From Amoebophrya sp. A120 (Eukaryota; Protista; Dinoflagellata), in assembly GCA_905178155.1 (NCBI GenBank), contig CAJINV010000004.1, positions 6,972,358 through 7,036,357 of the forward strand: 64,000 nucleotides of DNA. Reading direction: 5' to 3'. Below are positions 10,427-64,000 of this stretch, in pieces. The notes beneath the pieces were generated by a model. That model saw only the letters and a program-made list of their open reading frames with translations. It had not been told where the DNA came from and did no database searches. Positions within the stretch are counted from its first letter, which is position 1. Every line of letters starts with the position of its first letter. Made by a program: the position numbers and the translations under genes.

Positions 10427-11482
10427 GGAGTGAATGAGATTGTTTCAGCTTGTGCGGATCTGTAGATCGGTACAAACTCGTATCACAGGAAAAAGTGTAG
10501 ACGTAGACGGTTTTAAGAAAATGCAACAAAAAAATTTTGTGAGCACCCTAGAGGATATTACGAATGCCATAAGAACACGCACTCACATGGCTAGCTATTG
10601 CGGGACTCCTTTGTAGCTTAATTCATTTGCGCTAGCTTGTGCAAAAGGTCTGGGCGCCGTCCTGCCGATCCATCAAGTGCCGTTCGAGGAGACCTGTCTG
10701 GACAACCACTGTTCCTGGCCCGGGGTTGTAACGCCCCAGAAACAGGCCGGCTGGGTGGAGTCTGCAACTTTCCGGCTGAGAGTCAGGCAATTCTCCGGCG
10801 GGAACGTCAGCAGGGTTTCCCTGCGAGAGGGCTGGGCCGCCGCAAATAAGGCGCTAACCCAGTTGGCGGAGGCGAAGCTGATTGACAGTGAAGCGATGCG
10901 CCTGCTCACGGCTCGCAAAACCCTCGCAAAGCCCTGGCGAACTGTGTTGATTGTCTCTAGGGAATTCGTCTGCTGTTCAAATTTTGCGACTTATCTGCTC
11001 ACCATTTTGAACAAAAAAACCGGAGCTCGGAAATTTTGCCTGCCTCCAAGGCCAAATTTCCAAGGTACCCCAAAAACCGTCTACATCGACACTAGACTGC
11101 ATGGCATGGTCCATGTAGACGGTCAAAAAGTGGCCCTGACCAACAAAAAACCCCAGAAAAACCGTCTACGTCGCATCTAGACTGCGTGCTATGGTCGATT
11201 CAGGAGCTCCAAAAGGGTCGCCAGTCCCGGGACCCCGTTTTGGAAGGGCCGAGTCGACCATAGCAGGCAGTCTGGAGGCGACGTAGACGGTTTTTTGCAG
11301 ACGTGGCTTTTTTGAGCTCAAAATGGTGCCAGATGAACACTTTTTTCTGCCGGTCTCGGGGAGACCCTGAAAAACCGTCTACATCGCATATAGACTGCAT
11401 GCTATGGTCGACTCAGCCCTTCCAAAACGGAGTGAGTGAGATTGTGTGACCTTGTGTGGATCTGTAGATCGGTACAAACTCG
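10427..11482. repeat. Intergenic composite repeat: 54-bp direct repeats around ~950 bp with AAAACCGTCTAC...TAGACTGC units and a ~60-bp inverted repeat
   Basis: 10427-10480 matches 11429-11482 with 5 mismatches; units at ~11072, ~11157 and 11370, inverted at 11235-11296. Confidence 0.75.
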
Positions 11483-21605: not shown

Positions 21606-23894
21606 TCACCAGTGGCCTCTCCCTCTCTGCTGGTAGTGGTAGTCCCGCCTCCCCGGAGATTGCTGACCGTTACGAGGACCTCTATCCCCCCAACGACCTC
21701 CCTCGTTTGTTCTCCCACGGCCGGAGCCCTTTATGGAAGTGTCAGAATCGAAATTGACAAAATCAAAGATGAACTTGTGATGCACAAAATCGATGCCAAT
21801 TAAACCTCCAGTCTGTAGACGGCGCATGACAAATTGTCCCCGTACTGGAAGCGAATCTGTCATGCGATTTAGGGAAAACGAGCTGCCTTCTGTCATGCTA
21901 GTCGGCAGCTCAACCCTTGAAGACCTTTTCCAGGACTATAATCTGCCTCGTCCTTTGCATCCTCTGCAGTAGAGCCACTCTCTGCGTGGCATTTTATGCA
22001 TTACAAATTATTTCAACTTTGCCGATTTCGATCCTGACAGTTCCATACCCTTTTGCCCGCGGTTATCGAACCCGTTCCGGGCATCGTTGGTCAGCAACCC
22101 GGGGGCGTTGGCCTCCTCTTCCACGCTCTCGGCGTTGCCCCAGACGATGATGCTGATCCGCCCCTTGCCGTCCTGGTCCTCTTCCGCCAGCGCGTTTATC
22201 CCGTGCTTCCAGTTGATGTTGGCATCGCGCCCGAAGGAAAACATCATGCCGTTCGATTGTGGGAAGTAGGCTTTCACGGGTTCGCGATCCCGCACGGCCG
22301 GGTCCACGCGCAAAAAGGCCAGCTCGCGCTCCGCCCCGAAGCTTGCGCCCACGGTTATGTTCTGGTTTTTTGCCCGTTGGGGGTTGAAGGCCGCCGAATC
22401 GTGGTGGAACGGCTTCCAGTCCCGCGAGTCACGGTACCAGTTGAACCGGGTCCCGATAGCCTTCACGTTCTTGATGTGAAAATACTTGCAGATTTTCTCC
22501 ACAATTTTTTGGTACGTCGGCGCCACCTCCGGCTGCTTGGTGACCAAATGACAACCTTCGTGCCACGAAATCCACGTGCTGGTGGACGTCGTTGTGGTCC
22601 CAGAGGATCGGTCGCTGCTTTGTTGGGCTTGCCCGTTTTTCCGAATTTCGTCCACTAGTTTGTAATACAGTGACCAGTCGTCCTCTTCACAGAAAAATTC
22701 GGGCACAATCACCACGTCGTCGTGTTTCAGACGTTTCTTCAGCACCTCCCCCCGGTTCCCGATGAACACGCGGAGATCCGGGCGGACCAGGGTGGATTTT
22801 GGATCAAACGACTCGGTCATGACAGTGCACAACTCGCCCTCCCCCTCATTTGTATAGCATGCACGGTAATAGTACAAGCATCAGCAAGAGTGCCGGTTTT
22901 GCATGACAAATTTCCAGTGTGGGCTACCAGAACTTGTCATGCAAACAGTGCCAAGACACAACCAACGGGTGGATTGGGTATTTTGCATGACAAATGAGGG
23001 GAAGCAGGGGGAGTTGTGCAATGTCATATCGGTGTTGCGACCCTTCTTGTGCAGGTTCACCTGGCGGTCTTGCGGGCGGGGGTCGTCATTCAGGACAGGG
23101 AGGTCCGGGTCCTCGAAGGAATTGTTCATGTTGAGGCCGGAATTGTAGTTCTTTTCGTGGTTAAGGTTATTTCTCGTCTTGGAAGTCGTGGTTGGAAAGC
23201 TGCTTTCGTAAAGATCTTGTGTTCCTCGTCTATGTTGAACATCAACCAAAGTTGAAGCACTGTCGTGTTGTGACGCTTTTTTTCCTGCGACTTGATGATG
23301 ATTATGTCCCTCGTCTCCTCGTGCATTTTTTTCTTCATCTTCAACCTCCACACGCGGTCGCAGAATGACCAGGTTGTTCATCTTGGGCCTCTCTTGTCTC
23401 TGCTGGTCATGATCCTTGGCGTCCTCCTCGTGCTGTGGACCGGCGGGCGCGGCGGGGAGGGAGTGAGCAGTTGTACTTCTACCTTTGTTCTTCATCTTCC
23501 TCTTTTCATTCGCTGGTGGTGGTGTTCTTCTTGATGAGGACGAATTATAACTGGACGTCGACGCGGATTTTTCACGACGACGATCGCGGTCCTCTGGAGG
23601 AGCACGTTTACGTCTCGGTGACCTAGACCTGTCTTCTTTTGCAGCTCGTCCTCCTCGTCGTCGGTTTTTTGAGGTGCGGTGGATCTGCTCGTCTGCTCGG
23701 GAGATTGGGGAGCGAGAATGACGACACGCCCGCTGCCCTTCACTTCGGCCCCGGCCCCCGGACTTCGGGTCATAGTATTCACCGCCACCACGCCGTGGCG
23801 AGCCACGGTGTTGAGCAGTTCTTTCCCGTGGTTCATCATCATCATCATCTCTGCCACCTGTCCGGCGGCTGCGGCGATCGTGAAGCGACGGCAT
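21606..23894 (-). CDS. AlkB-like 2OG-Fe(II) dioxygenase with RS/RG-rich extensions, ~583 aa
   Basis: RFNWYRDSRDWKPFHHD...VGASFGAEREL...WKHGI...GRISIIVW (HxD...H...R); two introners removed in frame. Confidence 0.82.
21732..22047. mobile_element. Introner family C
   Basis: Family-C TIRs; TSD CCCTT. Confidence 0.92.
22818..23028. mobile_element. Introner family F (left end CAT instead of TAT)
   Basis: CATGACAGTGCACAACTC / GAGTTGTGCAATGTCATA; TSD TCGGT; RNT|ESFDP. Confidence 0.9.
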
Positions 23895-33900: not shown

Positions 33901-36900
33901 CGATAGCGGGGATCTGTAGTTTCCTCTTCGTCGATTATCCCCAACTCGACGGTTGTGGCAGCACCTGCTGTCGCGGTCATCCGGGTCGCTGTGTCCACGT
34001 CGGTATCCGTGTTCGTGTTCACGTTCATCACGCTAATGTCTTCATCAGCTAAGTTATAATTCACCGCAGAATATCAAGTGTAAAAATGTCTGGGTCTGGA
34101 AGAATTCATGTTTGTCATGCTTGTCTGGCATGACTCTTAAATCTGTCATGCACGTCATCCAAGAGCTCCGCTTTTCGTTTTCTGTGATGCAGAAGCGCAG
34201 TTTGTCATGCAGAATAGGCAACACCTAGGAGCTCAGAAACTTGTCATGCTGAGCCAGCATTTTGATTTTTAGCCTCATCATGAGACGCCACCCAGCATCA
34301 CAAGTTTCCAGACCCAGACATTTTTACATTTGATACGGAAACCTCTGCCGCCGCCTGTTTCAACAATTTCTCCTCTTCATTCAGGGTCCTTCTCCGCGGA
34401 TCAGCTTTAATATTTGTACTCAACGCAGCCAACTCCGCGGACAACTCTTTATCCAGGTCCGCGTCACCGGTAGTCGTGAGTTGTGCCTGATCTGTAGTAA
34501 TTCGGAGGTCTGTTATTGCCGCAGAATTATCTCCATCAGCGGCAGCGAGGCGAGGAGACATTGCCATGCTAGAACCAGGTTTAGTATTACCGTCTGCTGA
34601 CACTTCTGCTGTTCCTTTTGTACTATTATTTATTTCCGCGTCTCTGTCCTCCTTCAAGTGGTCGATGCTCCTCTCAAAAAGCAGTTCCATGTGGTCCACA
34701 ATTTGGAAAAACCGGTTATCAAATGCAAAAAAGTCTGGGTCTGGAAGGATGCGCAATTTGGCATGCTGATCTGGCATGGCCCTTAAATCTGTATTGCGTG
34801 GCCACAAACAGCCTCTCTCGCCTGTCATGCAAAAATGCAGTTTCTCATGCGGAATACGCAGCACAGAAGCACGAAGCAACTTGTCATGCTTGGCGGCGCA
34901 TTACAGTGCATTTGTATATTGACTGACTTGCATCACAAGTTTCCAGACCCAGACATTTTTGCATTTCATACCGGTCCATGTGCTGCAGGGTTTCCTTCTT
35001 TCGCTATCGTAAGGAAAAATCCCCCCTCCCCATATTGAAAACGTATCCGTCTGAGAATTTGTGATGCGCATTTGTTACTTCAAGTCCTGTCTGTTTTGCA
35101 AGAAGGCAAGTCCAGAGAGCGCCCCGCATTTTGCAGGCGGTTTGTGATGCTGTTGGGCTTAGGGCGTACACGTTTGCCATGCTAGGCGCCTACGTCAAAA
35201 CCTCGCGACTGAGGCTTGACATATGCCTGCAGTCCTCTACTGCAAGACAAATCTGACTTCTGTACGGAAATCCAGCATCAGAAACTTCGTTTCGATATGG
35301 GGAGGGGGGATTTTTCCTTTTGATATCCGCGCCAGCCGCTGTTGCTGCGTGAGAATGGCGTGCTGGGTGTTTTCAGCGACGGTCACATCTTTCACATCCG
35401 TGCTGTACCGCTGCCGGTCCTTCGTCAACGGGATAATCACCGGGGAGTCCATGGACCGGGTTTTGGACTGCGTCAACCGCTTTCGCTGCCTCTTGTTCAT
35501 CGCCCTTGTTTTCGAAGAGGACTTCTCTTCTTCGAGTTTAGAAGAATTTTGATTTTCATCTCCCTCTGCCCCGAGAAGTTCTTGTACAGACCTACTGCGA
35601 CTGCGTCCTCTACTTCGTCCGCGGGGGGCGAAGAAAGAACTTGATGCTCCTCGTCCTCCTGCAAAACCGCCCTGCGTACTATAATTCTTCCGCGCGGCCC
35701 CAGCTTTTTCTTTCTCCATAGTCGACAGCAAATCGTTCGAAAGCTTATCGAGGTTCAGCTGGGCGCCGCTGGTGCCGGCCTCCTTCGCATCTACTGTCGA
35801 CGCACCGGTTGCACCATCTACTGTGTCTAGTTTGATCGTAGGGACCTCAATGGCCGCGACAGCCACCGGCTTTATTGATGCGACAGGGAGTTGTGCAGCA
35901 ACTCCCGCTTGCTGTGTGCTGGTTGCAAGAACCTGTTCCTGCTGCAATGCACCGAAATCCTGACTGACGGCACTTTGGAACCGCATCGCCTTGTAATTCT
36001 TTGCGGCTTCGGCACTTGTAGAGGTTCCTCCCACGACAGCAGGAGCACCAGCAGCGATCTCTGTTGCTGGTTCCACGAAAGAAGAATCGTGGGGAAGCTC
36101 CGGCTCGGCCAAGTCGTTCTGGTTGGATGCGGCTTGTTGTCCTCCGGCTTGCACGAGCTGCCGGTTCATCTGGGCCGCATTTGTACTGCCAGGTGGAGGA
36201 CCACCTCCTGCAACAATAACTCCCTGCTGGGTGGACTGCTGCTCCTCAACTACGTTCTCTCCTCCAGCAGTGCCTCCCAACAAGTTGGTTCCACCGAAAG
36301 TAAAGTTGTATTGCTGAGCGGATCCGCTTTTGATTATGTTCGTCACGGCACTGGAATTGGTCGCAGCTAAGCTTCCGTACAGGTCGTCTGATGAATTATT
36401 GCCGTAGTTTATTCCAGTAGAAGCTTGAACGAGCTGTTGCCCTCCAGAGGATATTACCTGGTCCGCTCCGAAGTAAGTTTGCTCCTGCTGCACGATGGTT
36501 GACTGGTCTTTCTTATCAAATGTAAAAATGTCTGGGTCTGGAAGGGTTGGAACTTGTGACGCAACCTCTGGAACACACAAAAATTTGTCATGCATGAGCG
36601 CCAAAAGCTGTCCATTTCTTGGCACGCAAGAAGGAAGTTTCTCATGCGGGAGAGGCATCATGAGGCGTGCTCAAAACCTGTGATGCTTTTGCCTGCATCA
36701 GACGCCATTTGCCTTTGCGTGATCCGAAATATGCATGACAAATCTCGCAATCTTCCAGACCCAGACATTTTGACACTTGATATTTCTTCGAGATCGAAAG
36801 ACTGAACAAGACGGGTTTTATTTTGTAGAGTAAGCTATTGCCAGCATTTGGCGTCAGGTTATTGGAATTTCCAGCTGCAGAAGATGAGCCTCCGCCGGCC

Positions 36901-38266: not shown

Positions 38267-40351
38267 GATGTTCTTGCCGTTTCTATCTATCTATCGTTTG
38301 GTGTCAAAGTGCGGTAGAAAGAATGCGGGAGCTGTAGCTGCAATCCTCCTCCCGGTCGTGGACCACGTGGGTTCAAAGATGACGTAGAGCTTCTCCTCTG
38401 CCGCGAGTTACTTGTTTAGAAAGACGCTACTCCTGCTCGCCCGGAATGTTCATCTTGTCGCTTTAGGGAGACGGGAGTTCCGCGCCTGCCTGCGATAATT
38501 CTACCCGGGAATACAGCGCCGTATTGATTTTCCACCTGTGGAGGGAAGTATCCAACCTCCAGACAGCGGGCTGGAGCGTGGAGAAGGAGAGCCTTGGTTG
38601 CGCGCGAAAGTTCGGTAAGAATCTACTCCAAGAAAAAGAACAACATCAAGCACGTCCACATGCACGTGGTACTGGTAGTATCAAAAACCCTGCATCTTCC
38701 GAGCCATCACGACCACGACACAGGGACGCTGAGTTGTAATGGGGGGGGGGGAATCCGAGGATACCTGTCCATAGTACTTTTTTTGGATTGGATTGGATAT
38801 CTTGGACTTGAAAAAATCCTAATTTTTTTGACGCGAATGAAATCAGGATCAGTAACGTGACCTAGATGTACTTGTGTTTTATTTTTGACAGCCATGTAGT
38901 TGTAAAATTCGCCACCACCACAATGTATCAAAGCACACGAATAAAGACGACCCACTGGTGGATTGTACCGTACGAGACGTATTTCCTATCAGCACGAAGA
39001 ATTGACGCACGAGAACCGAGGTGGGTATTGAGCTTTTCATTTTCTATGCACGTTGCTCCTGTTAATATACCCTGGAGGACGAGTATGGGTCAAGTTTTTC
39101 GCACGAAAATAAGTGTTGTGGAGGAAGATATTCATATTACATTTTCTTTATTTTGACAGACCGATTTGAATCTTGACAACGACGATGACGAACCGACAAG
39201 AGCAGGACAAGATGAAACCGAATGTGTAAAGAAGTACTTTCTTTATAGAAATTGTGCTTTCACGATGAAGAGAACCAGTTTATCTTTGTATAGAAGGAGC
39301 AAAGCCAAATGAGAAAACCCGAAGTTGTCGATGTCGATCACAGAAAAGCAATGAGGCAGGCCCGCACGACTAGTTTGTAGTCAAATACCGGCTCCGCCGA
39401 CATCATCTGGATTTTGCATTGTAGAGGACGTTTTGAAGTTCTATCGTACAAGAAAGAGTGGGAGGTCCATTTTTAGAAATTTCGCCGGACGACCAACAAC
39501 TAGATCATCTTCATGGGAAGATAGAAGATAAGCTCAGCCCAATGAGTGATTATATACGCAGCTGCAATAAATATTAGGTTAGCTGTAGTTGCATACGGTA
39601 GTAGAAACACTCTGCAGGGTCCTTTGTACAAGTTGCAATGAATAATGGACATCATAGTTGGTCACCTAGTTGTAGTTCTTGTCCGTCGTTCACCTTCATC
39701 TTCGCCCAGCTAGTATTGAACCTACCTTCATGATTAGGCATAGACTGCTCGTTCAATAAGTCGTCGCATTTAATAGCACCTGCACCAGTGTACGTTTCTT
39801 CAGGGATGAAGATGATGGTGAACGTCAGGTGGCTTATCCTAGGTGCTCGTCCTCGGGCCGCATCTACGGGGGTAGTTGGTACCTCTCCTACAAGTCGGTA
39901 GAAGAAGAAACAAGGTTAAGAAACTAATTTCGTGGTTCCTATTCCAGCTTGTAATGTGCTGGCGGTCAACATTTTTGTTCAGAAAAACGTGCCGATAGTA
40001 ACTCCTTAGCCGTGCATTTGCTCTTGCACCACTCGCAGCCACGACAGGATCGGGAAATAAATCATTGTTCAGGTGAAATTGATTGACTCGAAAAGTTTGC
40101 TTGATTGCATAAATGCATTTTTATTCCGAAGACATTAGTGTAATAGTAGGATAATTTCTTAAACGGAGCAGCATCGTGCTACATAGATACGCGGATTTTT
40201 CGGAGGAGAAGAAGAGCAGTGGGTTTTATTTTCATGTTCACGAGAAGCAATAAAGACTATTAGACACGGGTAGTGTCTAGTCTTCGCAGCATAATCTTCT
40301 CGATGATCTTCTCTTCCTCGCCTAAATATTAGCACCCTCCACTTTCGACTT

Positions 40352-43282
40352 TTACACGACTTCTAAGTCGAGTTTGTTGTCGGAGAAGTTCAGTATGTCA
40401 TAGTTCTTCTCCCGCATCTCGTGCGTGCGGATCGCGTATCAAATGCAAATATGTCTCGTTCTGGAAACTACTTGAGGACGTCTCCAGTGCCGGCCACGCA
40501 TGACAAGTTTTTAAGCTCCTAGGTGCGTGTTGCCTGTTCTGCATGGCAATGTGCGTTTCGGATGACAGGAAACTGGGGTGTTTCTGTAGCGTGCATGAGC
40601 ATGACAGACTTGAGAATCATGCTGGCCGAGCATGACAAACTTTGCATTTTCCAGACCCAGACATATTTGCAATGCATATCGCACGCGCCCGAGCCATTTC
40701 GCGCCCGGCGTCCGAGGAGTCGAAGAGGCGGTAGTGCGCTATGGGACTCTCAAACGTTACACTCCCAACCTCTACATGATTTGTCATGCACAATGGGAAT
40801 CAGAATCGACACGATCAAGCTGTCTCGCATGACAAATCATCGAAGGGCCAAACAGGCTGAGAACCTGCGCCAAATCTGTCGTGCAAGACACGTCAACTAC
40901 ATGTCCCCGCTTTCACTTTGGCCATTCTTGCATTACAAATCCGTGTAACAGTTGAACATGTAACAGTTGAGAGCGCCATATGCGTGTCAAAGTAGCGGTA
41001 GGGGTGCCTTACCGGGTCGACGTCTTTGCGCTGGATGGGAATGTCGTGCGATCTGGGATCTACCATCGGAAACCGGTTCAAACCTTTACAGTGTATAGTG
41101 AATTTATGGGTGTGTCAGGATCGAAATTCTCAAAGTTGAAAAAAAAATCCGGGGGCCCCTGAAGAGGTGCCGGCATTTTGCGTTTCAACTCTGACACATT
41201 CGCCCCCCCTCCGAGCTAGCCACCACGCTATGCTGGAGTGTGTCAGAGTTGAAGGGGGTCCCGGAGGGGGTGCCCTGAAGGCCCCCGCCAAGGACTGCCA
41301 GAATTTTTTTTCAACTTTGACGATTTCAATCCTGACACTGCCATAGAATTTTCTTCAGAAGCTGCAAGCGAGATCTATAGGGATTTTCTTGCACGACGAA
41401 GATGTAGATGATGAAATACAACGATAAGATCAAAGCGAATGACTAGAAGTACGATGAACAAATTGCTTCTAATATTAACGTAATATACCGTTCTTAACAT
41501 TCTCGTGTTGTGGGTGGGTAATCGCCTCGTTGGCCTGTCTTTCAAATGCAAAAATGTCTGGGTCTGGAAGATTTCTGGATTTGTCATGCATATTTTCCAT
41601 GACCCGTGATGTCTGTGACGCATGCCGTAGCATCAGAGATTTTTGGGGCGCTTCTTCATGCCTGTTCCGCATGACAAATGCCATCTCCGCGGAGCACAAA
41701 ATCTACTCCTCTTACTGATCACGCAATACAAATCTTTTTCGAATCCAGAGAGAGCATCACAAGTTTAGAATCTTCCAGACCCAGACATTTTTGCACTTGA
41801 TACTGTCGCTTCTCCTTCAGAAACTCTCGCCTTTGGTCTGCGTGACTCGCGTCTGCCTGTGCTTGGTACATATCGTACCTAGGTGTCGGGTGCGTTGTTT
41901 TTTCCGACGTAGCTGTCATGCAGGATGAACAATACAAAGTAGCTCAGCAATACAAATTAAATTTGTATTAATGCGGATCTGCCTTAAAACAAAGATTTGT
42001 AATGCATGAAAGCATGTGCTTATCCATTTGCTACCTTTCTTTGTAGAGTTCCGTTTCCGGTCTTGTAGGTCCATCGATTCCCGTCAGACCGTTTTTGTAG
42101 TGCCTCTGGATCAACTTCGACTGCCTCTTGAATCTGTGAAATATTTTTTCATTTGATTTACGCCCCGTGCATTACCTTTATGTAGCGACGACTACCGCTG
42201 GCGCTACGGGTACGACCATGCGAAAAGACTATATTTTTTTCAAGTAGACCAAAGACAAAAAATGCTGTGTTTGAAAGAAAAAGAGGAATTACAGCGAGAA
42301 AAAACATAAAGTACGCTGAAAGCTCGGCTTTTGCTTTGTTTGCGTAGGCGATGCCCTCTTTTAGCCTCTGGTTTTCTCGGAGTCGCTCACTCGGGAGCTG
42401 TATGGAGAAGTTCTTAAAGATTTCCAGGTGGTCTTGGTTTATTGGGTGAAAGCCCGGGAGCTTGTGGCACCCCTCCTTCTTGTCGCCCTTGTAGCCGTCG
42501 TACCTGCGAAGTAATTTTTGAATTTCAGTTGCGTTGCGTACCTGCCAGTGTTCAACTCTTTTAAACCAGAACCTTTCAGACGTCGCGTTTCTTGGAAAGG
42601 CTTACACGACAGCTGCATCATTTACATATGATGTTGTGCGCCCTAAGTAAAAATGCAACGAAAAAATTAGTTTTTTTGATGAACAGCACACTTCATTTTG
42701 ACGAGAAACAGAAAGAGGAACTCCAATCATACCATAATGGTGGCTTATTTGACATGTCCATGGCTATTCCCGGGAATTTTCGGTCCCTTCCTTCGCATGT
42801 GAACGAGGGTGATGGTCTGCTGGACCCGTGGCAGTTTGCGAGGGGCAGCGTGCGGCTGAATTTGTCGGAGTCCCGGGTGTTCTGGTTTTTGTAGTACGGA
42901 TCGTGTATGGGAGTGTCAGGTTTGAAATCGTCACAGTTGAAATAGTTTGTCATGCATAAAGATAAAACCGATATATGCCAGCCAAGCGGCGCGTGACAAA
43001 TTTTCTTTTTCCGAGCGCCGGAATCCAATTTGTCTTGCTGTTTGGGAGCAGCAAACTGCTTTTGTCATGCTACTTTAGCAGCTCTACTTCAAACCCTACA
43101 CAGGCTCACAATCGGCCTCACTTGCTATCCCGGCAAGAAAGCCACTTCATGTCTTGCATTTTATGCATGACAAATTATTTCAACTTTGTCAATTTCAAAC
43201 CAGACACTTCCATACCGTGCGTTTTCAGCATACCATCGAGCCGGAGCGCCTCGTGCGGCGCCGGCTGGACTGTGTAGGACAT
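40352..43282 (-). CDS. Multi-exon hypothetical protein (mix of canonical and introner introns; middle exons not fully resolved)
   Basis: In-frame exon chain KLIQRHYKNGLTGIDGP...RYDMYQ...KRQ|ANEA...KNG|LNRFP...TH|YRLF...RA|IRTHEMREKNYDILNF; first exon MSYTVQPAPHE. Confidence 0.6.
40437..40678. mobile_element. Introner family A
   Basis: Family-A TIRs; TSD TCGCG/TCGCA. Confidence 0.88.
40740..40980. mobile_element. Introner family I
   Basis: TATGGGACTCTCAAACGTTACA / TGTAACAGTTGAGAGCGCCATA; TSD TGCGC/TGCGT. Confidence 0.86.
41105..41345. mobile_element. Family-C-ended MITE inside a canonical GT-AG intron (41084-41488)
   Basis: Family-C TIRs; TSD GAATT; distinct GC-rich interior lacking TGTNATGC motifs. 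Confidence 0.88.
41540..41802. mobile_element. Introner family A
   Basis: Family-A TIRs (left end TTT instead of TAT); TSD CTGTC. Confidence 0.9.
41879..42034 (-). other. GT-AG intron derived from a decayed family-B introner
   Basis: Interior resembles family B; flanked by TACCT direct repeats (AG|GTA on the mRNA strand); TIRs eroded. Confidence 0.7.
42906..43214. mobile_element. Introner family C
   Basis: Family-C TIRs; TSD TCGTG/CCGTG. Confidence 0.9.
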
Positions 43283-44044
43283 TTTTTTTTTTGATGGAGG
43301 AGTTCTAGAAACCCTACTACGACAATGGCGAGTCGACGTCGCGCTCGCCCTGTTGCTTCTACTGGGCAGCTCGGTAGCGCAGCCACTAAGTAGGCAGTAC
43401 CCCAGCTACTGTTCTTGCACTACTTGTTCTTGTCTTTCTATCCCGCCGCGAAGTCGTGGGTGTGGGAACGACCAAGCTACAAATAACGAACAAGAATCTA
43501 GCAAAACGAATCACCATCGCTCTCCTCGACCACGACAACACAGACAACAACCCCTCGTGCCCACGAGTGAGGTACTGCGACAACGACGACGTAACGGCAA
43601 AGGAAGATTCCTCATCTCTGCTTGTTTTACTTCTAGTTTTACGACGCGCCTCTTCATTCCTTTACAACTTTTCTCTCTATACAGTTGCAGGTGTTCGTAC
43701 TCGTCAGCACAACTCAGTTGTAGGGTTGACATCATATATGTGTCTTTCACGATACTGACACAGACCTGACGGCACAACTACTTCTTCTCATGGCAGGAGA
43801 ACACATCACCGCTTCTAAAGTGCGATTTTTAGGCTTCGCAAGAGCAAAAGCTTCGCAGAACCAGAAGTACATGGAAATTATTGTGTCGCTGATGTCGCTT
43901 AAAGTGTCGTACATCGAGTGGCTGTGGTCCAACTCTGAGGACGAAGAGGATGCTGGCCCCCTTTGTCTTGGTACGCATGTGTATGGCCTCATCATGATCT
44001 TCGTGGCTGTCGCGCATCAAAATGATCTAAATCTGACCCGCAGC

Positions 44045-47371: not shown

Positions 47372-48439
47372 GATGATGTGGGCGGAGGTTCTTGCTCTTA
47401 TTTCTTTTTGGCAGGAGAGGGGCGGGGAATTATAAACTCGCAAATACTACCTCCTGCTGCGGTTGTTGACCTGCTTGAGGACGTCGCACCAGCTGCCGTC
47501 TTTGGAGGCGCTTTTGATGCTCAAATATCGGCACTATGAAATCTCATCTCCGCGTCGCCGCGTTCCGAATTCATCTTTTGAGCAACAATAGCGCTCGCGT
47601 TACTAGTTACACATGCGTCGTTTTTATAATGTGAGAATAAAAGATGTGCGGTGAAGAGGTCGGATAATTAGACGACAGCTTCACAGCTTCTATGGGGATA
47701 AGCGTCGTCGTCCTCCGACATGAGAAAGTGAAAATGTAAATCCAAATGTCGACACGAGTAAATACAATTAGAATTAATAAGTACAACGGGAGGTGGTCAT
47801 AGAAACAGCGCTGTGATAGATTGGATTGTTAAAATTAAAAGTCGGCACTACTAATAGAAATCAAGCTCAAAGAGCAGGATATTGTTGAGTGCTAAAAACG
47901 GTCGAAAAAAAAGCACATTTGCAGGTTTCCGATCAACAAATGTCTTCATTTAGCTTGTTCTCGCCACATTGTATTTGCAGAGAAAAGCAGATCGCCAAAA
48001 CTAAACCTTAACCTTGTATTAACATCCCTTAAGTTCGTCTTCGTTGTAAAAAGGCAGCACGTCGGTGTCAACATCCGTGACTGAGTTTGAAAACTCGTTT
48101 TTCGAGCGGAACTGACACAGATCAATACAGGGAGAGAACAACATCCGAAAAGTGTGCGCTTTGTTCCTCATGTGATCTTCGCACCAAGCACGTGAGTAGA
48201 ATCATTTCCTTGCCGCGGCAAGAAGTCGTGCCAGCTAATGTATGAGTACTCTCATTTTCCGAGCTCTTTGGGCTGCAACACCTCATCGAAGAAGCGCACT
48301 ATGGATCATACAGGTCGACGTGGGCGATCATTATATTTGACGTAGTTCGCATCGGCACAATGCGTGTAATAAAGCAGCTTCTAGTTGTGCTAGTATACAT
48401 AGATCAATCTTGCTCTTCAACCTCCTTCTACGGCGACTT

Positions 48440-50160
48440 CTACGAGTATTTCTCGAAAAATGCCTCCACGAGCATGTGCCTTTTCTCCCGCGGCCGCAGA
48501 TCTCGGTGCTGTAGCACTTCCGCGAAAGCACGCGGGAAAAAGTCTCGACGCGGATCTTCTTCTTCCTTGGTTTTCGTTCTTTCGAGCGACTTTTTCTTTT
48601 CGTTACTGCTCTTCCTGGTGTCCTTCTTACTTTCTTTTGCTGCTGACTTGCTGCGTTTATTGTCGACGTCGCTTTTTGTTTTTTGGCCCAGCAGCTGCTC
48701 GCCCAGCGTGTCCTCGTCTCTGCCGCCTTTCGTTTCAGGGTTATTTTTGGAAGTACCTCCACCTGCAGTATTTGTGTTCATCATAGTACTAGCACGAGGC
48801 CTCTGGAACACGATACTCCCTGCGTGTGCGTTGAAGAGCGCTTTTTCCGCGGAACTTGCTTCTACCGCCAGGGCTACTTCTTTCCTCGCTTTCTCCGGTT
48901 TTTCGTGCAACAATTTTCCGAACTCGGGGTTCAAAAGGTGGAAATGCGTTCCAGTCACGTGATCCTCGTCGTGCAAGATCAATTCTTTTTTCAAAAACAC
49001 CGCTTTCACGTACTGCAAGAGGAGAATCAAGTTCCTGTGCGGGTGCTCCTGCGCCTCGCCGGCAATCAATTTCGCTGGGGAGGTGGAGGACGAATTTATC
49101 ACTCCTCCCGGGCCTTGCTGCTCCTGCTGCGCCCCCCGTCGTCTGCGTTTTGTCCTGTTCTGTGGGTAGTTATTTGTGGTTAACACCAAGGGTGCCAGGT
49201 CCAGCCGCCCGGTCTCCGGATCGACTAGCGGATGGGGGAAGTGGGTACGAAAAATTACCTCCACGCCGTGCATGCTGTGTGGGTAGAAAGTGCTGGCGGT
49301 TGGGTCGGAACTTTCCGCTCCTGGGGAAGTGCCAGTGGAACCACTGCGCGCGCCCCCTCTTGCCGTCGAGTGTAGTTTGTTCATTCCGCCTGAGGTACTA
49401 CTAGACGGGAACATGATTGTCGGAATGCTAATCGAGAACCTCACGGTTAAATTCCTGTACAACCCTCGGTGGATGAACAAACAGCCGTATGGGAGCGTCA
49501 GGATTGAAATCGTCAAAGTTGAAATAGTTTGCAATGCATAAAATGCATGACCCGAGGTACGTGTGTTGCAGAGCAGGCAAGTGAGGCCGATTGTTGGCCT
49601 GTTTGGGGTTACAGCTGGAGCTGCTAAAGAAGCATGAGAAAATCGCTCTTTTTTCCCTAAACAGCATAACAAACTGGATTTAGGGACCACCGAAATTTGT
49701 CATGCGCCAATTGGAAACTGGGTTCCAACTGGCACGCATTTTATGCATGACAAATCATTTCAACTTTGTCGATTTCAAACCTGACGCTTCCATAAGCCGT
49801 GCCAGTGCCGTAGATCGCGAAAATCCGGTAGCTATCCTGTGCAAAAGTATCGCACTCGTACTTCTAATCGCATTCATGCATTACAAATTTCTTTCTCAAG
49901 TTAAATCCGCATTACAAATTCAACTTGTAATGCTGAGCCAATTTGTATTGCAATTCATACTAGTACGATACTCACACTTTTGCAATGCATAGTAGCACGT
50001 AGAGGTTGCGAGGACAGTGGCTGGCCAAGAGGTCGTACTCGCAGAGCAGCTCAAAATCTTCCCCGGAGATCTCCTGGTTTTTCGCCGTGCGGGCGTCGAG
50101 GAGGGCGCGGTTTTTCCGTCGGGAGGACGGGGAGAGGGCTTGGATGAAGGAGTCTAGCAT
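48440..50160 (-). CDS. AKTIP: AKTIP/FTS/crossbronx-like UBC-variant protein, ~414 aa
   Basis: LLCEYDLLASHCPRNLYVL|PDFRDLRHWHG|CLFIHRGLYRNLTVRFSISIP...FPHPLVDPETGRLDL...LLQYVKAVF. Confidence 0.8.
49488..49794. mobile_element. Introner family C
   Basis: Family-C TIRs; TSD AGCCG; inverted near-copy of 4743-5049. Confidence 0.92.
49833..49991. mobile_element. Introner family B
   Basis: Family-B TIRs; TSD GTAGC. Confidence 0.92.
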
Positions 50161-52894: not shown

Positions 52895-55800
52895 TCACAA
52901 GAAGCGAGTCAGCCGATCTCTAGCTCGTCCTACTTTTTCCTTCGCCTGCTGAACGTCTTCCGCACTGAAAGAAGAGTTGTTCGCCTGATTGTTTCCGCCG
53001 GGCAGATGTGGAAGGTTTGCGCTTCGAATGTCCGTCTGGAGTTCTTCCAACATGGTCAGCAAATCGCCCGCAACATCAAACACGTCGCTTTTCGGAGTTC
53101 CTTCTTCGATTCCCAGCACCTGCCATGCCCAGAGAAGAGAGTCTTCTTGTTCAACTTGCTCTAGAATATGTGGCACTCGTTCTGCGATGTCAATCTTCGC
53201 CTTCTTGCCGTATTCTTCAGCTTGTTTTGCCATCTTTCTTGGGTCGTCGCAGCTGATTGGCTTCTTCGGATCCACACCGTTTCTCGAACACCAGTACTTG
53301 TGGTAGGGACAATTTGGAGGATCCGTTAAAGTTGCTCCCGAAATGATGTTAGCGATGTCGGGAAAGTTTATGTGCAAATCCACGAGCGATTGCATATCTT
53401 GTTCGGGCATTGCTCTGTTGGGGAGGTCGATGTTGATCTTCTGGCGCAAATACGTTGCGACGTTGTTCCGCAGTAGCGTCACGATGTTGCAGGCCACTTG
53501 CTCGTCCGCCCGGCTTCCCTGCATGGCGGCTACCGCATCAGATTCTTCCTGTAAATCTTCGAGAAAATCTTTAATCCGAATCGGCGACACCATCTGCGTG
53601 AGTCGGTTTGCATCACTGTGCACGATCGTTACATACTGCTCACCCGCATCCGCGCTCCAACGCTTCAAGTCCTTCCAGACGCTAACGCAACGCTCGACAA
53701 AATTGACATCGGTTAGCACGATTAGCAGCATATCGCGAGGCTTCATTACCGAGAACTTTATCGGTTTTCCCTGCTTTGTCCAATAATCACACACTCGCTT
53801 GCCGTGGTACTCCCAACACGATCTGAAAATTATATTTTTCCAATACCTTTCTTTTGTGCTTGTTCTGTCTAAGTACAATTATCTATCGAATATCTATATC
53901 AATTATTTTTCTACTAGCTGCGGAAACACATAACGATAACTCGAGCCAATTCAACGCGAAGGTGGTGAAGAAGTGACTGAGAGGAGTTCCATGGCCACAA
54001 AGCTATCAAAACTTCCCCCTCCATCCAAGTGCACCAAAGTGAACTCCGAAGCCCTGCTGACGACACGCAAAATAAAAATCTCCATACCGAAACTTCACAA
54101 CGTTGGAGAGCTTGTCCTGGGCGTCTTCGAAGAAGTCAAAGTCCCAAAGGGGGTTGTCTTTCTTAATCTCCTTCCAAGTTGTCCACTTGCGGGTCCGCAG
54201 GTCTTTAATCGCCGCGTCATCCTTGATTTCGTCGCAGGTTAAGAAGGATGGAAACCCATTATTCGAGACGCCCGCCATAACCCTCATCTGGTGGCCAAGC
54301 TTGCAGGAGTGACGGTGTGTCGGTTCCCCTGCCCCCGGCTGGTCGCACTTTCTGCCACACGCCGGACAGCAGTGTGTGCAGCCAATCGCGGTCTCCTTGA
54401 AGTTGAAGTACGTGGTGTCTAAACCCATTTCCTGAATGTCGAGTTGAACGTCTTCGCACGCTTTTAACTCTTTCAAACACCGGGCCTCCAAAACCTCACA
54501 GAAAACATCAAAGGACACAATCTTCAGCCCCTGCGTTGTCGGCATCTTCACGAAGGGAACGGACCCCCAGGTGTCCAATGTGTCGACGCCGTCGATTTCC
54601 CATCCTGCCGCCCCATCCCAAACCCATGTTGTGCTGTCGCGGAACAGGTCGGACTGTCGATTGTTACCAACGCAGGAATCAATGAAAAACGCAAACACAG
54701 CACTGTGCTGGTCCGACGCATTCACGTCAAAGCAGTTTCTCCCCCTTTGGGACGAAGCAGCGAAGAGATGAGTTCCTCCGTCGTCACGAATCGTGCCGAG
54801 AAACTGTTTCAGCTTGGCCAAGTGGTGCAGTAACTTGCTCAGCGCATCTTTCCTGTCCATCTTGTGCTGGGCCACAAACCGCGCCTTGATGGACTGGTAC
54901 GTCTCTTTCCACTTTTTTTCGAACTCCTCCTGAATGAACGCGGCTTGATCGGTGAGGTAGCGCACAACCTCATTGGAATCTGCAGTCGGGCAGAATGGTA
55001 GCCGGCTATCTAAGGACTCTTGCAGTGCAACAGCGGAAAATGCGCCGGCGTGGTGCTGCATCTGCTCGGTGGCGTCCTTTGCCGTCTTCTTTTGCAGGTC
55101 TTTGCCCAACGACTCCATAGCAGAGTCCATCACGCGCTCTGCCATGATTTCACTCTGGCCGCGCGGGTCGGAGAGTATCGATTTGATCACGAACTGTAGC
55201 CAGGGCTCGCGATCTTTTTCGAAAACCTCAATGTGCCGCACCGAGCGCGCGCGGGAGCCATCGGATATCAGGGACCACATCGTGACGAGGGCGTAGAAGT
55301 GAAGATGCGCCATTCCGTCCATATCCAGTTTCCACCCAAAGCGGCGCAAATCCTCGCTCACCGATTTGTCTATCGCCTCCGAACAACGCTGGCGCACGAG
55401 TCGCGTCAGGTGTACCGAGTAGTTTGCAACTACAGAGGATGCACATCCAGCTCCTTGTTCTGTTTCCGTGTCAAGACGCGACAAGTCGACCTCCCTCAAA
55501 ATGATTTCGCGGAAGCGCTTGAAGACCGTGCCACGCCAGCGGCCCTCGTTGCGGACCAGCAGGTTAAACTGCGAACGGATGTCGTGACTGTCGGTACCTA
55601 CTTCCTCGCCTGCCACGAACTTCAAAGCATCCGCAAAGGGGGCGTTGAAATCCGGCACGCTTTTTTCTTGCGGACCATCGAGCATTTCTTCATCTGGTGC
55701 CGTCGGGTCGCGGCGGACTTTGAAAACAATCTTTGCGCCTGATCCGGAAACGTGGGTAAGGTGTTGCGGCGGCTGGTAGAGTGGCGACTTGAGGAGATAC

Positions 55801-58800
55801 TCATCAACTACTGCAATGGCTCGTAAATCGACGTAGTTGCTGTTTGCGTGACTGCGCGTCTGTGCGAAGTTGGGAATCGGCAGCAAAAGGCGAGCGAGGT
55901 TTCTGTTGTTCGATGACTCGCGCAGACGCATTGGCGTCGGTCTCTCGCGGAGACTGTCAGCTGCTGCACTGGAAGCCGCAGACCTGGGCGGCGAACTTGC
56001 TGCAAAATCTTCAAAATCCGACCGCTTCCTGCGCTTCGAATCAGCACCCTGCCCTTCATCTCCTACCGCCCGATTCCTTTTCGTGACGGGTGCAGTCTGG
56101 AAGACATGATCCATCATCTCGGCGTACTGACTGCACAATATCCGGAATAGCTCGTCGGGTTTCTTTTCCTTCGCTTCGCTCGGCGCCCTTGCATCTCGGG
56201 ATGAAGAAAACACCGAAAAAATTCCTGAAAAAACATTTTTGCTACCCGTATACGACGAGTCCGCACCCGTTTTTCCGTCATCCTCAATGAGCGCAATGAC
56301 AGCCTCGATGAACGCGTTCGCAACTTGAAATCCATAGGCGTTGAACGACGCGCATGCGTCCTCCACTTGTCGGATGCGCGTCTGGTCAGTTCCGACGCGA
56401 GACTTTGCTACGCAGGCCAGGAGATCGTTGAAAAATGTTTTCCATTTTACCGCCAACACGAAGTCACTCCAGTTGAACCGCTGAATGGAGTAGTAGGGGT
56501 CGTAAAAGTCCGCTGGGGAAAGAAAATTCCCGGGCCCCGCAGAAGGAGTTTCATCAGCGCCGGCATGCCTCATCAAATCCGGAAGATCCTCAAGTGCTGG
56601 ATTAATGAAATCGCTTTGCCCGATGTCCATGCACGGGGTGTTCCCACTCGCGAACATGCGGTCCATAATCATCTTCTGAAGAATCTCGTCCGAGCCGCGA
56701 TGTTCCTTTACGGTTTTTTCGAAGTCCGAGTCACAGAAAATGTCCAACGGAAACTCTTGGTGCTGCCCGTAGCTTCCGCGGAGCAGCGTCCACAGTCGGT
56801 CCTGATCTTGGGCTAGATGGAGCTTCTTGTGCATCCCGGCAAGAATGTCATTCCAGACAACGTCGAACTCACTGGTAATCAGCCGCACTTTCTCCTCTTC
56901 GGAAAGCGGTGTAGAAGATGGAGCTTCGCCGCGCGACGCTCCATCTTGCTCCAGGTCCGGCGACGTCGTCAGCGATTCGTCGCCGTTCCTGCGAAACTGC
57001 GGCATCGAAGTAAACTTTTCAATCATTTGGTCGAGCTGAGCAACTCCTTTTTCGCGACTTTTTTCGGCTGCAATCTGCTGCAGCTGCAGCAGCGCGTTGT
57101 GCTGCTGGCCTTCGCAGTGGCACCGGACGCGGTCGCGGGCCTTCTTCTGGTACTGCTCCATTAGATCGTGATCGTACGTTACCAGCTTCTCCTTCGCTTT
57201 GTCTTTGAGCTCCTTCTCAATTCGCTTGCCAATGGCATCGAAGTGCTCCTGGATTCTGCTACGGACCTCCGTTTCCTGCAGCTGCTGGTACTTCTTGCTG
57301 AGAATTTTGTCGGCCTCCACGCACGACACCGCGTCCTCCAGCGCTTTTTGGTCCCGGGCGATGGCGTCGTTGCAGGTCAGGTGCGTGTCCTCGAGTTTCT
57401 GGCTGATTTCAAGAAGCAAGTGGTTCTGCTGCAGCAACTTCATGTTTGCGAACCGATACAGGTCCGGATAATTCTGGATTGTTTTCCAGGTGTCCGCACT
57501 CATGCTGATCCAATTGCGAAGTTCCTGGGTGGCAAACTGGGCGGCCCCTACGGAACTCGAACGACCCTGCTCCAAGCCTCCGAAGGAGCTGGCAGAATTG
57601 CCAGTATAGTCACCCGTCGCCACAGCCTCGAGCAGCTGTTTCGAAAACGCAGCAACCTGCTTGGCGTAGCGGAGACTTGGTTGCGAGCGCTCCCACTCTT
57701 CATCGCGACCGCGCTTGCTGTCTTTCTCATCGGTTTTGCACTCGAAGGCGAAGGGTAGTAGTACTAAGCGGCTCTCCGGAAACATCATGGCGTCCGCGGC
57801 TTCCTTGGCGTCTGGTTTCGATTCCCGGACGCTTTCACTGATCTTGTTGATCTGTTCCAGGTACGGTGCCTTGCTGTCCGACGCGTTTTTGTTGAAGACC
57901 ATGAAGACCTGCGGCATCGCCATTTTCGCCTTGTTCAAACCGTCCAGCGAGTAAATGCAGATCTCCAACAACTCCTGCATGCTGCGGTCTAGTTCCGTGT
58001 TAACATTGATGATGACGAGGTTGGAAACCGCGAGACAGAAGAGCGTGATTTTCCTGTCAAACTCCGGGTCGCCCTTCTCCGGGCTTTTTAGGCCTTCTGT
58101 GTCTATGACCATCAGCATGTCGTAGTTCGGGTGATCCAGCTCGATACAGGAACCATAAACGCCTTTGGTGCACCGCCCGCCGCTTGTGAAGAACTTGCAA
58201 CCAAACAAGAAGTTCAACAAGGTCGATTTTCCGGATGACTGTGGTCCCAGGATACTGACTACCAACACGCGCTTCTTGCCGAAGGTGCCGAAAGCTTCTG
58301 CAAGCGTCTTCTTCGGGATGGACAGTGTGTCACCGTCGATGATCTCGAACGGCTCGCCCATCTTGATCATGCCCAAAACCTTCTCGACCGGATCGATTTC
58401 GAAGTTCCCCTGCGCTCCAGCAGCACCACCGACCAATGCTGGTCCGGTCAGGCTAGTGGACGGCGCCGATGCGCCGTCGAACGGCATGCAGTCGAATTCC
58501 TTCATGTTGTAGAGCTCGCGCCACAGGAGCTCCAGCGAAAAGCGCTTTCGCTGCAAAAGATCGGAAACTTCGCGAACCTTCTCCCGCAATTCGACCGACT
58601 CGACGCCGCCTGCCATGTCTCTTCGCGAGTGCATGCGGTCCATGAGCAGGGACTTGTGCTTCTCGTCGTCGCGGGTGTTGCACTCGTTGAAGGCCTTCAA
58701 CAGGTGGCCAATGTAGCCGAGAATCAGCACGTTGTCGCCGTTTTGCAGAATCTTCACGAACAGTTTGTAGAGGGAAGTGGGCTGGATTTGTCGCAAATCG

Positions 58801-61619
58801 GAAAGCAGCTTGTCCTTCTTCGTTTTTGCGTCCTGGATGACCTCATGTGCGAGCTCGGGGTTGCGCAGAATGCACTCCTGTTCTCGCAACTCGGTTAGCA
58901 GCCGTCGCGATGCAAGGCAGCACGGGTCGTAGAAGTCATTTTTGAACGGCTGTAGATCCGAAAAAAACTGGCTCGCAAAGTCGTCCACCTTCTTGTATAT
59001 GATCATGTCGTGCTCCTGATTTGGATTTTCTCCAGCATCGCCCGAGGGGAGACCCTCGTCACTTGCTAGCTTCCTGTCTTTCTCCGCTCGGTGGATTTGC
59101 TGCAGAACTTTTAGAAATTGGCCTTTTTCGAAACAGCTGCTGCCGTTGCTGCGTTTCACATCCGAAGCATTTCCAGAAGAACCTCCAAGCGCATTGTCGG
59201 CGTCGGCCATTTCGACATCGTCGCCATTAGTCCTCGAGCCCGTCGTCGCCGAACCCCCTCCTCCAGAAGCACACAGTTCTTGATTGAAGACTGGCTCAAG
59301 CTCGTACTTGACAGCACGATCCAGGTTCGAGTGGTCCGTTAACGAGGAAAGGTCGTGGAGCGCGATGAGATGCAGCCGTACCTGGGAGAAACCTCCTGAA
59401 GCACCGTCAGCTCCGGACAGCAAGCCAACAAACCGCTCGTGTAGCTGCTGCAGCCGCGCGTCGCATCCGCCAGCACTTGTCGTTGTTCCGGAAACTTCTA
59501 CTTTGCGGAGCGGCGTGGACGACACCGTGGCCGGCACATCGCGCACCAGCACGATGATTCCCCGCGGCGCCGCTTCGCGGGCCCCGTTGATGGCTTTCTG
59601 AAAGTCCTCGAGAATGGTCGTCCGCCCCTTCTCCACGTCCTCCCAGTGCACGTGGATACACCAGTGCGAGAAAAGCTGCAGCACCGCCCCGAAGCGCGCA
59701 CAGTCCAGCTGCCCGTGCTGATCCGCAACGCAAATTTTCCTGCGCCGGCAGCCGGCCTTGAAGGAAAAACCCAGATCAACGTCCAGCGAGCCGAAGCTGA
59801 AGAAGCCGCTGTCCTTCTCTGCAAAGGTGCACATCAGCACGCGGTTGATCAGCGTGCTCTTCCCGATCCCCTCGGAGGCTCGCGCGCCCAACCCAAAGCT
59901 GCACAGCGCGCTCTCGTACGGCTGCTGCAGGAGGAAGAACAGGTCGCCGTTAAAAGTCTGTCCCGGGTGGATGAGTGGCAGTGCGTGCAGCGTGTTGAAG
60001 TCCATGAGCAGCCGGAGTTTCAACGGCGTCTCCGCTCGCAGGAAGACGAAGTGAAACAACGCTTTCGGTGTGAAGAGGCTCGCGATGGCTTCAGCCTTCG
60101 CAATTTGACGCTTGATGTTGTCGTTACCAGCGGCCGAAGGAAGTAGCTTCTCGTTGTTCTCTGCGGACCCCATGACGACGTCACCGTCCCCATCGTTCTG
60201 ACCGCTTCCACCTCCGCCTTGTTGACTTAACATCTTGCACCATTCCGAAATGGCTTCACTGGCGATGCTCTGCAACTTGCTCCAGCTCTCACCGCGTTTG
60301 AGCAAATTGAAAATGATGGGGATCACATACTGTTTAAACCCGTCATCCGCAGAAAGGTCGCGAAGCCAGCGCTGGAGCACACTTCGAATGTCGTCTGCTT
60401 CGAGACGCAGGGAAACCTGTTTTTGCGGTTTAATAACAATCCTTTTTTCGTTTCTCAGCACCGACAAAATCAGAAATGCTTTTGCTTTCCAAGAAAACGC
60501 AAATCATTCTCAAAAAAACCACGGCACCATAGCCCTACTGGCAACAATATCAACAATTTACTCGGTTGTATTCCGACAGGCAAACCTCGCTGCTCTGGAA
60601 GTACGCTTCGACTTCTTCAACCTTCTTGACACACACTTCCGGATGTCCATAGTAGATTGGAGAGGGAAGTGGAAATTGCGGATTGTTGTGCACCCACTTC
60701 ACACTGAGATCTTGATTCAAACGCTGTAGCTTTGGCAGGAGGGAGCGGTTTATCTGTGTTTTGGATTTTCATTTTTTTGCCTTGCAGCAGATTTTTCATT
60801 TACATTTTCATTTTCAACATACGTCCCAACACGACTTTCTTTTTCTCAGCGGGTAAAGACATGAAAGCTGATAGATCATGTGTGAGATGAATCAGAGACA
60901 AAAGGTACGGTATCCTCGTATTCGGCTTTGTTTTTGTTGAGTTCCAGTTCGAAGAAGATCTCGACGCAGTCCTTTGTCATGACGTCCCCATATCGACATA
61001 TCTCTGGCCGGTCTAGCAACATCGCTGTGTTGCTGTGGTCGACAACTTCTTCGCTGTCATCTTTGTCCGAAGTTGTAGTTGCTCCATTACTCGCCATCTG
61101 CTCGATCAGAACGCCCGCGGCCCCACGCCAGTTTCGCCTCGCGAAGGTCGCAAAGTCCGCGTTCAGCTTTTTCCGCACGGCCTTGCTGACGGTAGTGGCC
61201 GGGTTTCCGTTGCAGGCTTTGTTAATGCGGTACTCCCAGTACACTTCCGGATCTGCGAACAACAGGAGTTCCGGACAGGCTTTGCGGTATTCCGGGTGCG
61301 CCGCGAGGGCGGCGAGCTCGGGGCGGATTTGGCAGTCCTCTTCCTCGAAGAACATGTGCTGCAGCTCCTGGAGTAGTTCCTCGCGCTCCTCCACCTCCTC
61401 GCTGCGCAACCGGTCCTGGCAGCTGTCAACAAACTCGCGGGACTTCTTCGTGACCAGGCTGGCCCAGAGCTCTTCCGTGCCAGAGGACGAGAGAGCCTCT
61501 TGCACTTTCACGTCGTGGTCATTCGGTGTGCCATTCACCGTGCAGCTGCCGCGCGCAAACTGGTTATCGCTACCCCTGCGCGGTCCGGGCACGGGACACT
61601 TCGAGCCGTTTTGCCCCAT
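52895..61619 (-). CDS. VLIG-type very large GTPase (GVIN1/URGCP-like), ~2,701 aa, 4 exons
   Basis: SILGPQSSGKSTLLNFLFG...GRCTKG...DTEGL...DRKITLFCLAVS; C-terminal CPACGRKC...H; GT-AG introns 60724-60908, 60417-60585 and 53823-54087 join the ORFs in frame. Confidence 0.8.
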
Positions 61620-63730: not shown

Positions 63731-64000
63731 CTCTAACAAATGTTATCGTACGAAAGAGTGTTTCACATGTATAAAGGGATTTTGCGAGTTTTGCGATCAC
63801 AAGTGTGATTATACATGATCACAGAGAAAATTTATTTGCCATGGGAGGGTAGAAGTTCTAGGGGAAAACACAGCTAAAAATTTGTTCTCTTGCATCTGTA
63901 GCAAGACAAACACTTCTGAAATACATTTTCTGCATTGCAAGTTTACAGGGAAACAGTTTTTTCTTGCGATAAATGTGCCGGAGGGATCACCGCTCCGACG

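Follow-up and report, generated by a model that had tools for sequence, protein, structure and literature searches.

Why a mobile element that shares its ends with the C family of introners lies within a canonical intron, and lacks the internal motif carried by all full copies of that family, is the question raised by one locus in a 64,000-nucleotide stretch of Amoebophrya sp. A120 DNA (the whole of which is hereafter called the window). The preliminary description of this locus regarded the element as a natural control, arguing that the terminal inverted repeats (TIRs) suffice for mobility and that the motif is needed only for splicing, that is, where an insertion must be tolerated in an exon. 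One exon of the window encodes sequence 100% identical to a protein assigned to Amoebophrya sp. A120. The system present in the window is that of the known introner elements of Amoebophrya sp. A120, which have been described with TAT-starting inverted repeats of 8-20 nt or more, direct repeats of 3-5 nt, a length of about 240 nt, a hairpin, no transposase and non-canonical ends (Farhat et al., 2021, PMC7789003). Passages of the same report assign this layout of direct and inverted repeats to 15% of the canonical introns of A120 and raise a MITE origin for it; they also record tens of thousands of Amoebophrya introns without fixed splice dinucleotides, report that no U1 snRNA was found and state the excision mechanism as open (PMC7789003).

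The element opens with TATGGG at 41105, ends with CCATA at 41345 and is bounded by a perfect target-site duplication (TSD; Table 1). Its terminal arms extend over 57 nt with 81% complementarity, 32 of the 37 outermost nucleotides being paired, and the 37-nt ends resemble those of the C family (196 ends from 98 copies) at the levels listed in Table 1. Besides, the interior has a GC content of 0.63, compared with 0.44-0.47 for the window's four other C copies, two TIR sub-repeats within it are perfect inverted counterparts of each other over 15 bp, and the 8-mer TGTNATGC is absent when both strands are scanned. The structural part of the preliminary description, including the location inside a GT-AG intron that is skipped by RNA-type contigs of four runs, was thus borne out. 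A relaxed form of the motif, defined below, reaches a best score of only 0.7 in the element against a cut-off of 7; with no relaxed motif, the element clusters alone and falls outside the C type as defined by an interior of about 308 nt with at least four motifs. Motif absence is normal in ordinary DNA, as 200 of the 204 non-element tiles also lack the motif, and therefore its absence here matters only relative to the family. The predicted RNA fold is a single long hairpin (-131.3 kcal/mol, z -10.7), and an Rfam search returned a chance match only (E 0.42). The TIR score of the element was 20, while the best TAT…ATA/TSD pair in the shuffled controls (40 shuffles, 8.9 kb of non-coding DNA) scored 7.

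Table 1. Coordinates of the element, its host gene and the elements compared with it (positions of the window).
Feature	Position	Strand	Basis
Motif-free TAT…ATA MITE, foldback-like, 241 bp	41105..41345	.	Ends, TSD, RNA fold
C-family TIR, left	41105..41141	+	Median 31/37 against 196 C-family ends
C-family TIR, right	41309..41345	-	Median 33/37, best 36/37
TSD GAATT, left	41100..41104	+	5/5 match
TSD GAATT, right	41346..41350	+	5/5 match
GC-rich interior, unlike C-family interior, likely in about 3-4 copies	41142..41308	.	BLAST against 106 related loci, X2 depth
TIR sub-repeat, inner copy	41184..41198	-	
TIR sub-repeat, inner copy	41239..41253	+	Inverted partner of 41184-41198
Host GT-AG intron, 405 nt	41084..41488	-	RNA-type contig joints 41081>41487 (X3, X4, X5, X7), open frame
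Host transcript, about 1.96-2.0 kb spliced	39411..43429	-	Contig pieces, joints, translation
GT-AG intron derived from a B-family introner	41879..42034	-	Joint 41875>42032; 81% over 85 nt to B copies; motif scores 13.9-17.6
Motif-bearing C-family introner, same gene as 41105-41345	42906..43214	.	
Other C-family introners of the window	4743-5049, 21732-22047, 49488-49794		
Element without strict TGTNATGC, four relaxed motifs, open coding frame	63744..63971	.	Frame only
Second motif-free TAT…ATA element, weak TIR, TSD 4/5, non-coding site	47880..48127	.	Score 10, above 40/40 shuffles

The element sits 21 nt from the acceptor of its host intron, which would measure 159 nt if the element and one TSD were taken out. 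The joint 41081->41487 skips the full length of this intron, and the letters CT..AC found at the cut plus two correspond to GT…AG on the minus strand; intron-skipping contigs were found in four RNA-type runs, three of which represent one sample. The reading frame of the host is open across the five displayed joints. Additionally, the transcript contains two further introns of canonical type (seen or implied) and four motif-bearing elements, three of which are skipped in RNA-type contigs, each together with one TSD. None of the four joints at the site of 41105-41345 falls on the element's own ends, in contigs that drop rare forms, and the element is removed along with the surrounding GT-AG intron. 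A low-depth contig of X7 (4.3, compared with 200.9 for the mRNA) contains the interior of the element and may derive from pre-mRNA or DNA. The neighbouring canonical intron in the host gene, 41879-42034, has lost its TIRs, keeps three motif copies and has a TACCT repeat at its ends, so that it looks like an introner turned canonical intron; with this exception, the other canonical introns delimited by contigs gave no match to the relaxed motif.

Sequencing depth indicated that the element is repeated. In the DNA run X2 the depth was 93-153 across the interior and 31 in the flank, with contigs over 41114-41237 (depth 88, one difference) and 41256-41336 (depth 107, zero differences), and in X1 two positions in the interior had a depth of 139 and the flanks one of 40-47, rising within the element to 460-598 over the right part of the element where X2 gave 129-153. 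Taken as a rough guide to copy number, from two runs of one sample, these contig depths suggest about 3-4 near-identical copies of the 41105-41345 family at different sites. Single-copy contigs stop at the borders of the element, and the repeat is confined to 41105-41345. Such a pattern suggests a young small family and not the loss of the interior from a C copy in situ. The interior had no BLAST match in the 106 related loci. Near-identical copies with single-copy flanks make it likely that the element moved without the motif, and to this extent mobility in its absence gains support; that the TIRs alone suffice does not follow, because the element carries extra inner copies of the TIR sub-repeat. 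The summed TIR depth amounts to thousands of times that of the flank, compared with about four copies of the 41105-41345 family, and no transposase domain was detected among the 41 ORFs of the window that were scanned.

To place the element among its relatives, the window was combined with 106 loci (L001-L106, 365 kb) of one related assembly in a metagenome collection, which cover the 107 stretches of that assembly matched by a C-TIR pattern; this assembly belongs to a close relative of A120, with 95% identity in one protein. The combined sample holds 334 unique elements, 36 of them TAT…ATA elements of the window (38 were called and two of score 7 were dropped), with a TSD of 5 bp in 235/334 and a 4/5 match in 89, at target sites showing no strong sequence preference. 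The relaxed motif, RYYTG[T/C]NATGCW, is wider than the 8-mer and mostly occurs in 4-7 copies per element; it is present in all large families, including families with unrelated TIRs and interiors, and all 98 full C-family copies carry at least four. In copies of families C, A and B the TIR is prolonged by the outer pair of motifs, and some A and B termini consist of the reversed motif. At least about 80 further motif clusters, mostly decayed introners, lie outside the catalogue and were left out of the scoring. A search of viral contigs with the C-TIR pattern gave no matches. One C copy, L088:568-745, contains a foreign stretch of about 180 nt that is bordered on each side by a copy of a short segment of the TIR.

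Motif presence was then set against location, an element being scored as coding when its removal with one TSD restores the frame, so that splicing is inferred here from frame and not from RNA. The contingency table covers the 315 of 334 elements with full flanks, the 19 left out including L091:292 and window element 63744. The strict 8-mer was missing in 20/315 elements, and since 14 of these 20 lie in coding frames, it is not required; read in terms of TGTNATGC, the expectation that motif-less elements would not commonly occur as spliced exonic insertions therefore failed, as far as frames can tell. The relaxed motif gave a different picture, with six non-coding and one coding among the seven motif-free elements and 33 non-coding and 275 coding among those bearing it, so that at least one relaxed motif was found in 275/276 coding-scored elements, nine coding-scored elements having at most one match. 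In the window, taking out any of the 34 relaxed-motif elements along with one TSD leaves the minus-strand frame open, and both motif-free elements are non-coding, a split expected once in 630 by simple counting. The C family considered alone (1/0 against 13/72), to which the contingency test suggested in the preliminary description refers, gave p=0.16, which is not significant. As judged from these frames, motif-free elements appear to lie outside exons, a trend in the predicted direction that involves small numbers.

Four of the six motif-free non-coding rows are doubtful, as L015:4910 and L025:794 fall inside one larger repeat, L066:5322 is a tandem array and L074:1387 is weak and AT-rich. 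The credible motif-free or nearly motif-free cases are 41105-41345 in its intron, 47880-48127 between genes and L008:3030-3140 nested in an introner. The claim that the motif is needed only for splicing is at most partly supported, in that the relaxed motif fits the division between coding and non-coding sites in very few motif-free cases, while the strict 8-mer is dispensable. The coding score also misses real exons, as most of the 33 motif-bearing rows scored as non-coding have open frames; when about 20 flanks were read by eye, a non-coding look was found only in L003:260, L063:3855 and perhaps L055:550, and none was clearly in a canonical intron. L003:260-566 and L063:3855-4176 are motif-bearing and lie outside coding frames, the former about 35 nt upstream of an ATG. 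Element 47880-48127 has a right end that is weakly C-like, and L008:3030-3140 is a 111-bp near-perfect foldback with TAT…ATA ends, a perfect GAAAT duplication and one borderline motif match. The latter sits within a C introner, in the part next to the TIR, and the sequences on either side of that introner adjoin each other directly in the A120 orthologue. L043:1037-1148 is a small element in a coding frame with a best motif score just under the cut-off, and L091:292-612 is a strongly decayed C-type copy with a single motif match, apparently exonic, whose right flank measures only 16 nt.

The motif is conserved beyond what its surroundings would predict. On terminal branches of three families, the changes observed in motif columns amount to roughly half the expected number (O/E 0.48-0.49), with constraint on internal branches at least as strong as on the tips, and in the most diverged quarter of copies the values for motif and matched columns were 0.08 and 0.19 in family C, 0.145 and 0.35 in family A and 0.16 and 0.19 in family B, the last difference not being significant; all these tests pool change before insertion with change after it. 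Motifs also persist in scrambled old copies and in the TIR-less, presumably immobile remnant 41879-42034. Conservation did not depend on the orientation of the mRNA (309/3672 changes compared with 332/3678, p=0.36), and no bias of insertion orientation was found in six families. Fifteen of the 257 coding elements have no motif match on the mRNA strand and 17 have none on the other, and a family whose motif sites are split six to one between the strands inserts both ways. Equal conservation on either mRNA strand fits a plain RNA splice signal poorly. Stems showed no excess of G·U over A·C, which means that selection at the RNA level was undetected even for the TIRs. A hint of RNA-level polarity comes from the ends, where, in a post hoc comparison, bases 1-2 are invariant at the 5' end of the intron (257/257) and show 12 changes at the 3' end, while base 3 runs the opposite way (6 against 1). 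In family C, as in family B, a single position of the TIR also varied with the orientation of the mRNA (uncorrected p values of 0.007 and 0.001, respectively).

The explanation that we favour, holding it with slightly less than even confidence, is that 41105-41345 represents a small, recently mobile sister family surviving only outside exons, and that excision from coding RNA likely depends on the motif, whichever way it is oriented. From the shared 37-bp ends and the 5-bp TSD we infer that the C-family transposase moved the element, a step for which the motif would not be required. The same machinery would insert mostly into coding DNA, where copies bearing the motif would be cut out, always at the same distance from the TIR hairpin, and would be tolerated, and motif-free copies in exons would be purged, leaving a few survivors, all in introns or between genes. 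Since motif conservation ignores the transcript strand, the motif would more likely be read on double-stranded nucleic acid, for example by a DNA-binding protein during transcription, than as a branch-point-like RNA signal. With its two TG[T/C] half-sites, it has a shape that a DNA-binding protein acting as a dimer could recognise, and apicomplexan ApiAP2 proteins bind a similar short palindrome. Against this explanation stand the count of only two to three credible motif-free elements, the coding location of L043:1037-1148, the apparently exonic one of L091:292-612, the nine coding-scored elements with at most one match, the non-significant results for the C family alone and for diverged copies of family B, and the absence of a G·U excess in the stems; moreover, constraint on internal branches at least as strong as on the tips is what a mobility role of the motif would give. 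A more specific proposal, which we regard as rather unlikely, is that removal of non-canonical introns is licensed by a strand-independent DNA mark, a protein on TG[T/C]NATGC repeats directing transcription-coupled excision of the hairpin-bounded insert in place of U1-type recognition; motif-free MITEs would then be the non-splicing ancestral state, from which introners arose by capturing the mark.

The same distribution could reflect where elements land instead of where they survive, if the motif bound a host DNA or chromatin factor steering insertion into coding DNA, excision depended only on the TAT…ATA hairpin, and a motif-free element, itself spliceable, inserted at random into AT-richer sites. 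Mere tolerance does not predict the over-representation of motif-bearing copies in open frames (128/133 non-C copies against a background of 0.675, and 32/34 window elements against 0.764), and steering does; the strand symmetry of conservation agrees with it, the predicted fold of 41105-41345 is as good as that of a C copy that is spliced (z -10.7 compared with -9.0), and the invariance of bases 1-2 at the 5' end alone would suit a splice signal residing in the ends, subject to the post hoc choice and the opposite behaviour of base 3. Random insertion should nevertheless place about 60-75% of motif-free copies in coding sequence, when none of the three clear ones is found there (one of four if L043 is counted), and the motifs kept in scrambled old copies and in the TIR-less remnant also speak against steering, which we consider unlikely. 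In a very unlikely alternative, the transposase binds the motif at its subterminal position, which increases the number of copies, and the motif plays no part in splicing; 41105-41345 would use its inner TIR sub-repeats instead and stay rare. It would account for the motif pair that extends the TIRs, the reversed motif at some A and B termini, the constraint on internal branches, the inner sub-repeats and the gap between about four copies and a TIR depth of thousands of times the flank. However, if motif-free copies used the same transposase and chose their targets alike, almost all of them should lie in exons, whereas none of the three does; one motif is, moreover, common to families with unrelated TIRs.

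Read literally, the preliminary model makes the motif a splicing signal on single-stranded RNA that only exonic insertions require. It draws on the same distribution evidence as the favoured explanation, and as motif copies usually occur on both strands of each element, either orientation would be allowed under it. We find it quite doubtful, however, in view of the equal conservation in the two mRNA orientations, the coding elements lacking a match on one strand or the other, the family with the six-to-one strand split that inserts both ways, the 14 coding-frame elements without TGTNATGC and the delimited canonical introns that, the introner-derived one aside, do without the relaxed motif. Neither strand-symmetric conservation nor the avoidance of non-coding DNA by motif-bearing copies is predicted by that model as written. 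Motif and location might also be causally unlinked, an independent small MITE with borrowed C-type ends having landed in an intron by coincidence. This is what a single C-type case, a C-only p of 0.16 and four doubtful rows out of six would lead one to suspect, yet none of three independent TAT…ATA elements poor in the motif is exonic, compared with about 89% or more coding among the motif-bearing ones, which renders coincidence improbable as well.

The element shares features with several described systems. It resembles the introner elements of Farhat et al. (2021) in its TAT-starting TIR, its 5-bp direct repeat and its repetition in the genome (depth about 3-4 times the flank, a one-sample estimate) and differs from them in that, in the RNA-type contigs, it is removed as a passenger of a GT-AG intron and not at its own ends. 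The text of PMC7789003, as far as its passages on introns extend, describes neither a shared internal motif nor a motif-free sister family, and no description of the internal motif was found in the literature searched or in the supplement text of Farhat et al., whose figures, like the Gozashti datasets, may show it. As with the MITEs outlined in passages of PMC7789003, the element is short and non-coding, has a TIR and a TSD and exists in several near-identical copies; it differs in having ends common to a family forming non-canonical introns, and no autonomous partner was found among the 41 scanned ORFs of the window. The TA..TA termini given for IS3EU/GingerRoot elements in parts of PMC10045372 are also those of 41105-41345, whereas the TSD given there is usually 6 bp and here is 5 bp. 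These DNA transposons are also characterised by an IS3-like DDE transposase, and 41105-41345 is non-coding. According to excerpts of a recent study, one family of A120 introners has both TIRs and ORFs resembling integrases (Gozashti et al., 2025, PMC12130899), and a family of this kind is a possible mobiliser.

Introners of Polarella, Aureococcus, Micromonas and Fritillaria, as well as the nonconventional introns of euglenids, are transposon-derived, and some are formed in both orientations, those of euglenids being hairpin-bounded, according to portions of the corresponding reports (bioRxiv 10.1101/2020.10.14.339549, PMC9860276, PMC11282704). Introners are often gene-enriched, in 161/175 genomes by the account in part of PMC9860276. 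In the same portions, these introners mostly recruit or carry splice-site dinucleotides, and a multi-copy, strand-symmetric internal motif common to families is not mentioned. A motif that occurs across unrelated introner families, is conserved independently of strand and is missing from a few non-exonic relatives offers a handle on the open question of excision, and the motif-free family is a natural control for its role; if motif-free copies turned out to be spliceable, the motif would concern targeting or amplification, with a bearing on the crowding of introners in exons. The framework being known, the element alone is a modest finding, and it is the strand-independent motif together with a ready-made control that makes the excision question testable.

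Other parts of the window also deserve mention. A 1.2-kb element at 436-1654 is inserted in a motif copy of a B-family introner; its TIRs measure 48 bp with 94% complementarity, and its TSD is the 3-bp TAA. It has four ORFs without a transposase domain, and its ends and TSD are unlike those of the TAT…ATA class. At 11072-11433, a unit of 40-60 bp occurs four times, in tandem and inverted arrangement, within a stretch bounded by direct repeats of about 55 bp near 10430-10480 and 11430-11480; two overlapping ORFs gave no Pfam match, and the stretch is possibly another non-coding mobile element. An ORF at 9896-10345 matches an LSM domain weakly (E 1e-4, below the curated cut-off), and an open frame of 2164 codons at 54006-60503, with a domain like that of URGCP/very large GTPases, extends over 6.5 kb with no introner insertion. 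Finally, raw RNA reads of X9 on 36514-36544 carry an A-family TIR with other flanks (95%), that is, an introner retained in an expressed RNA of that sample.
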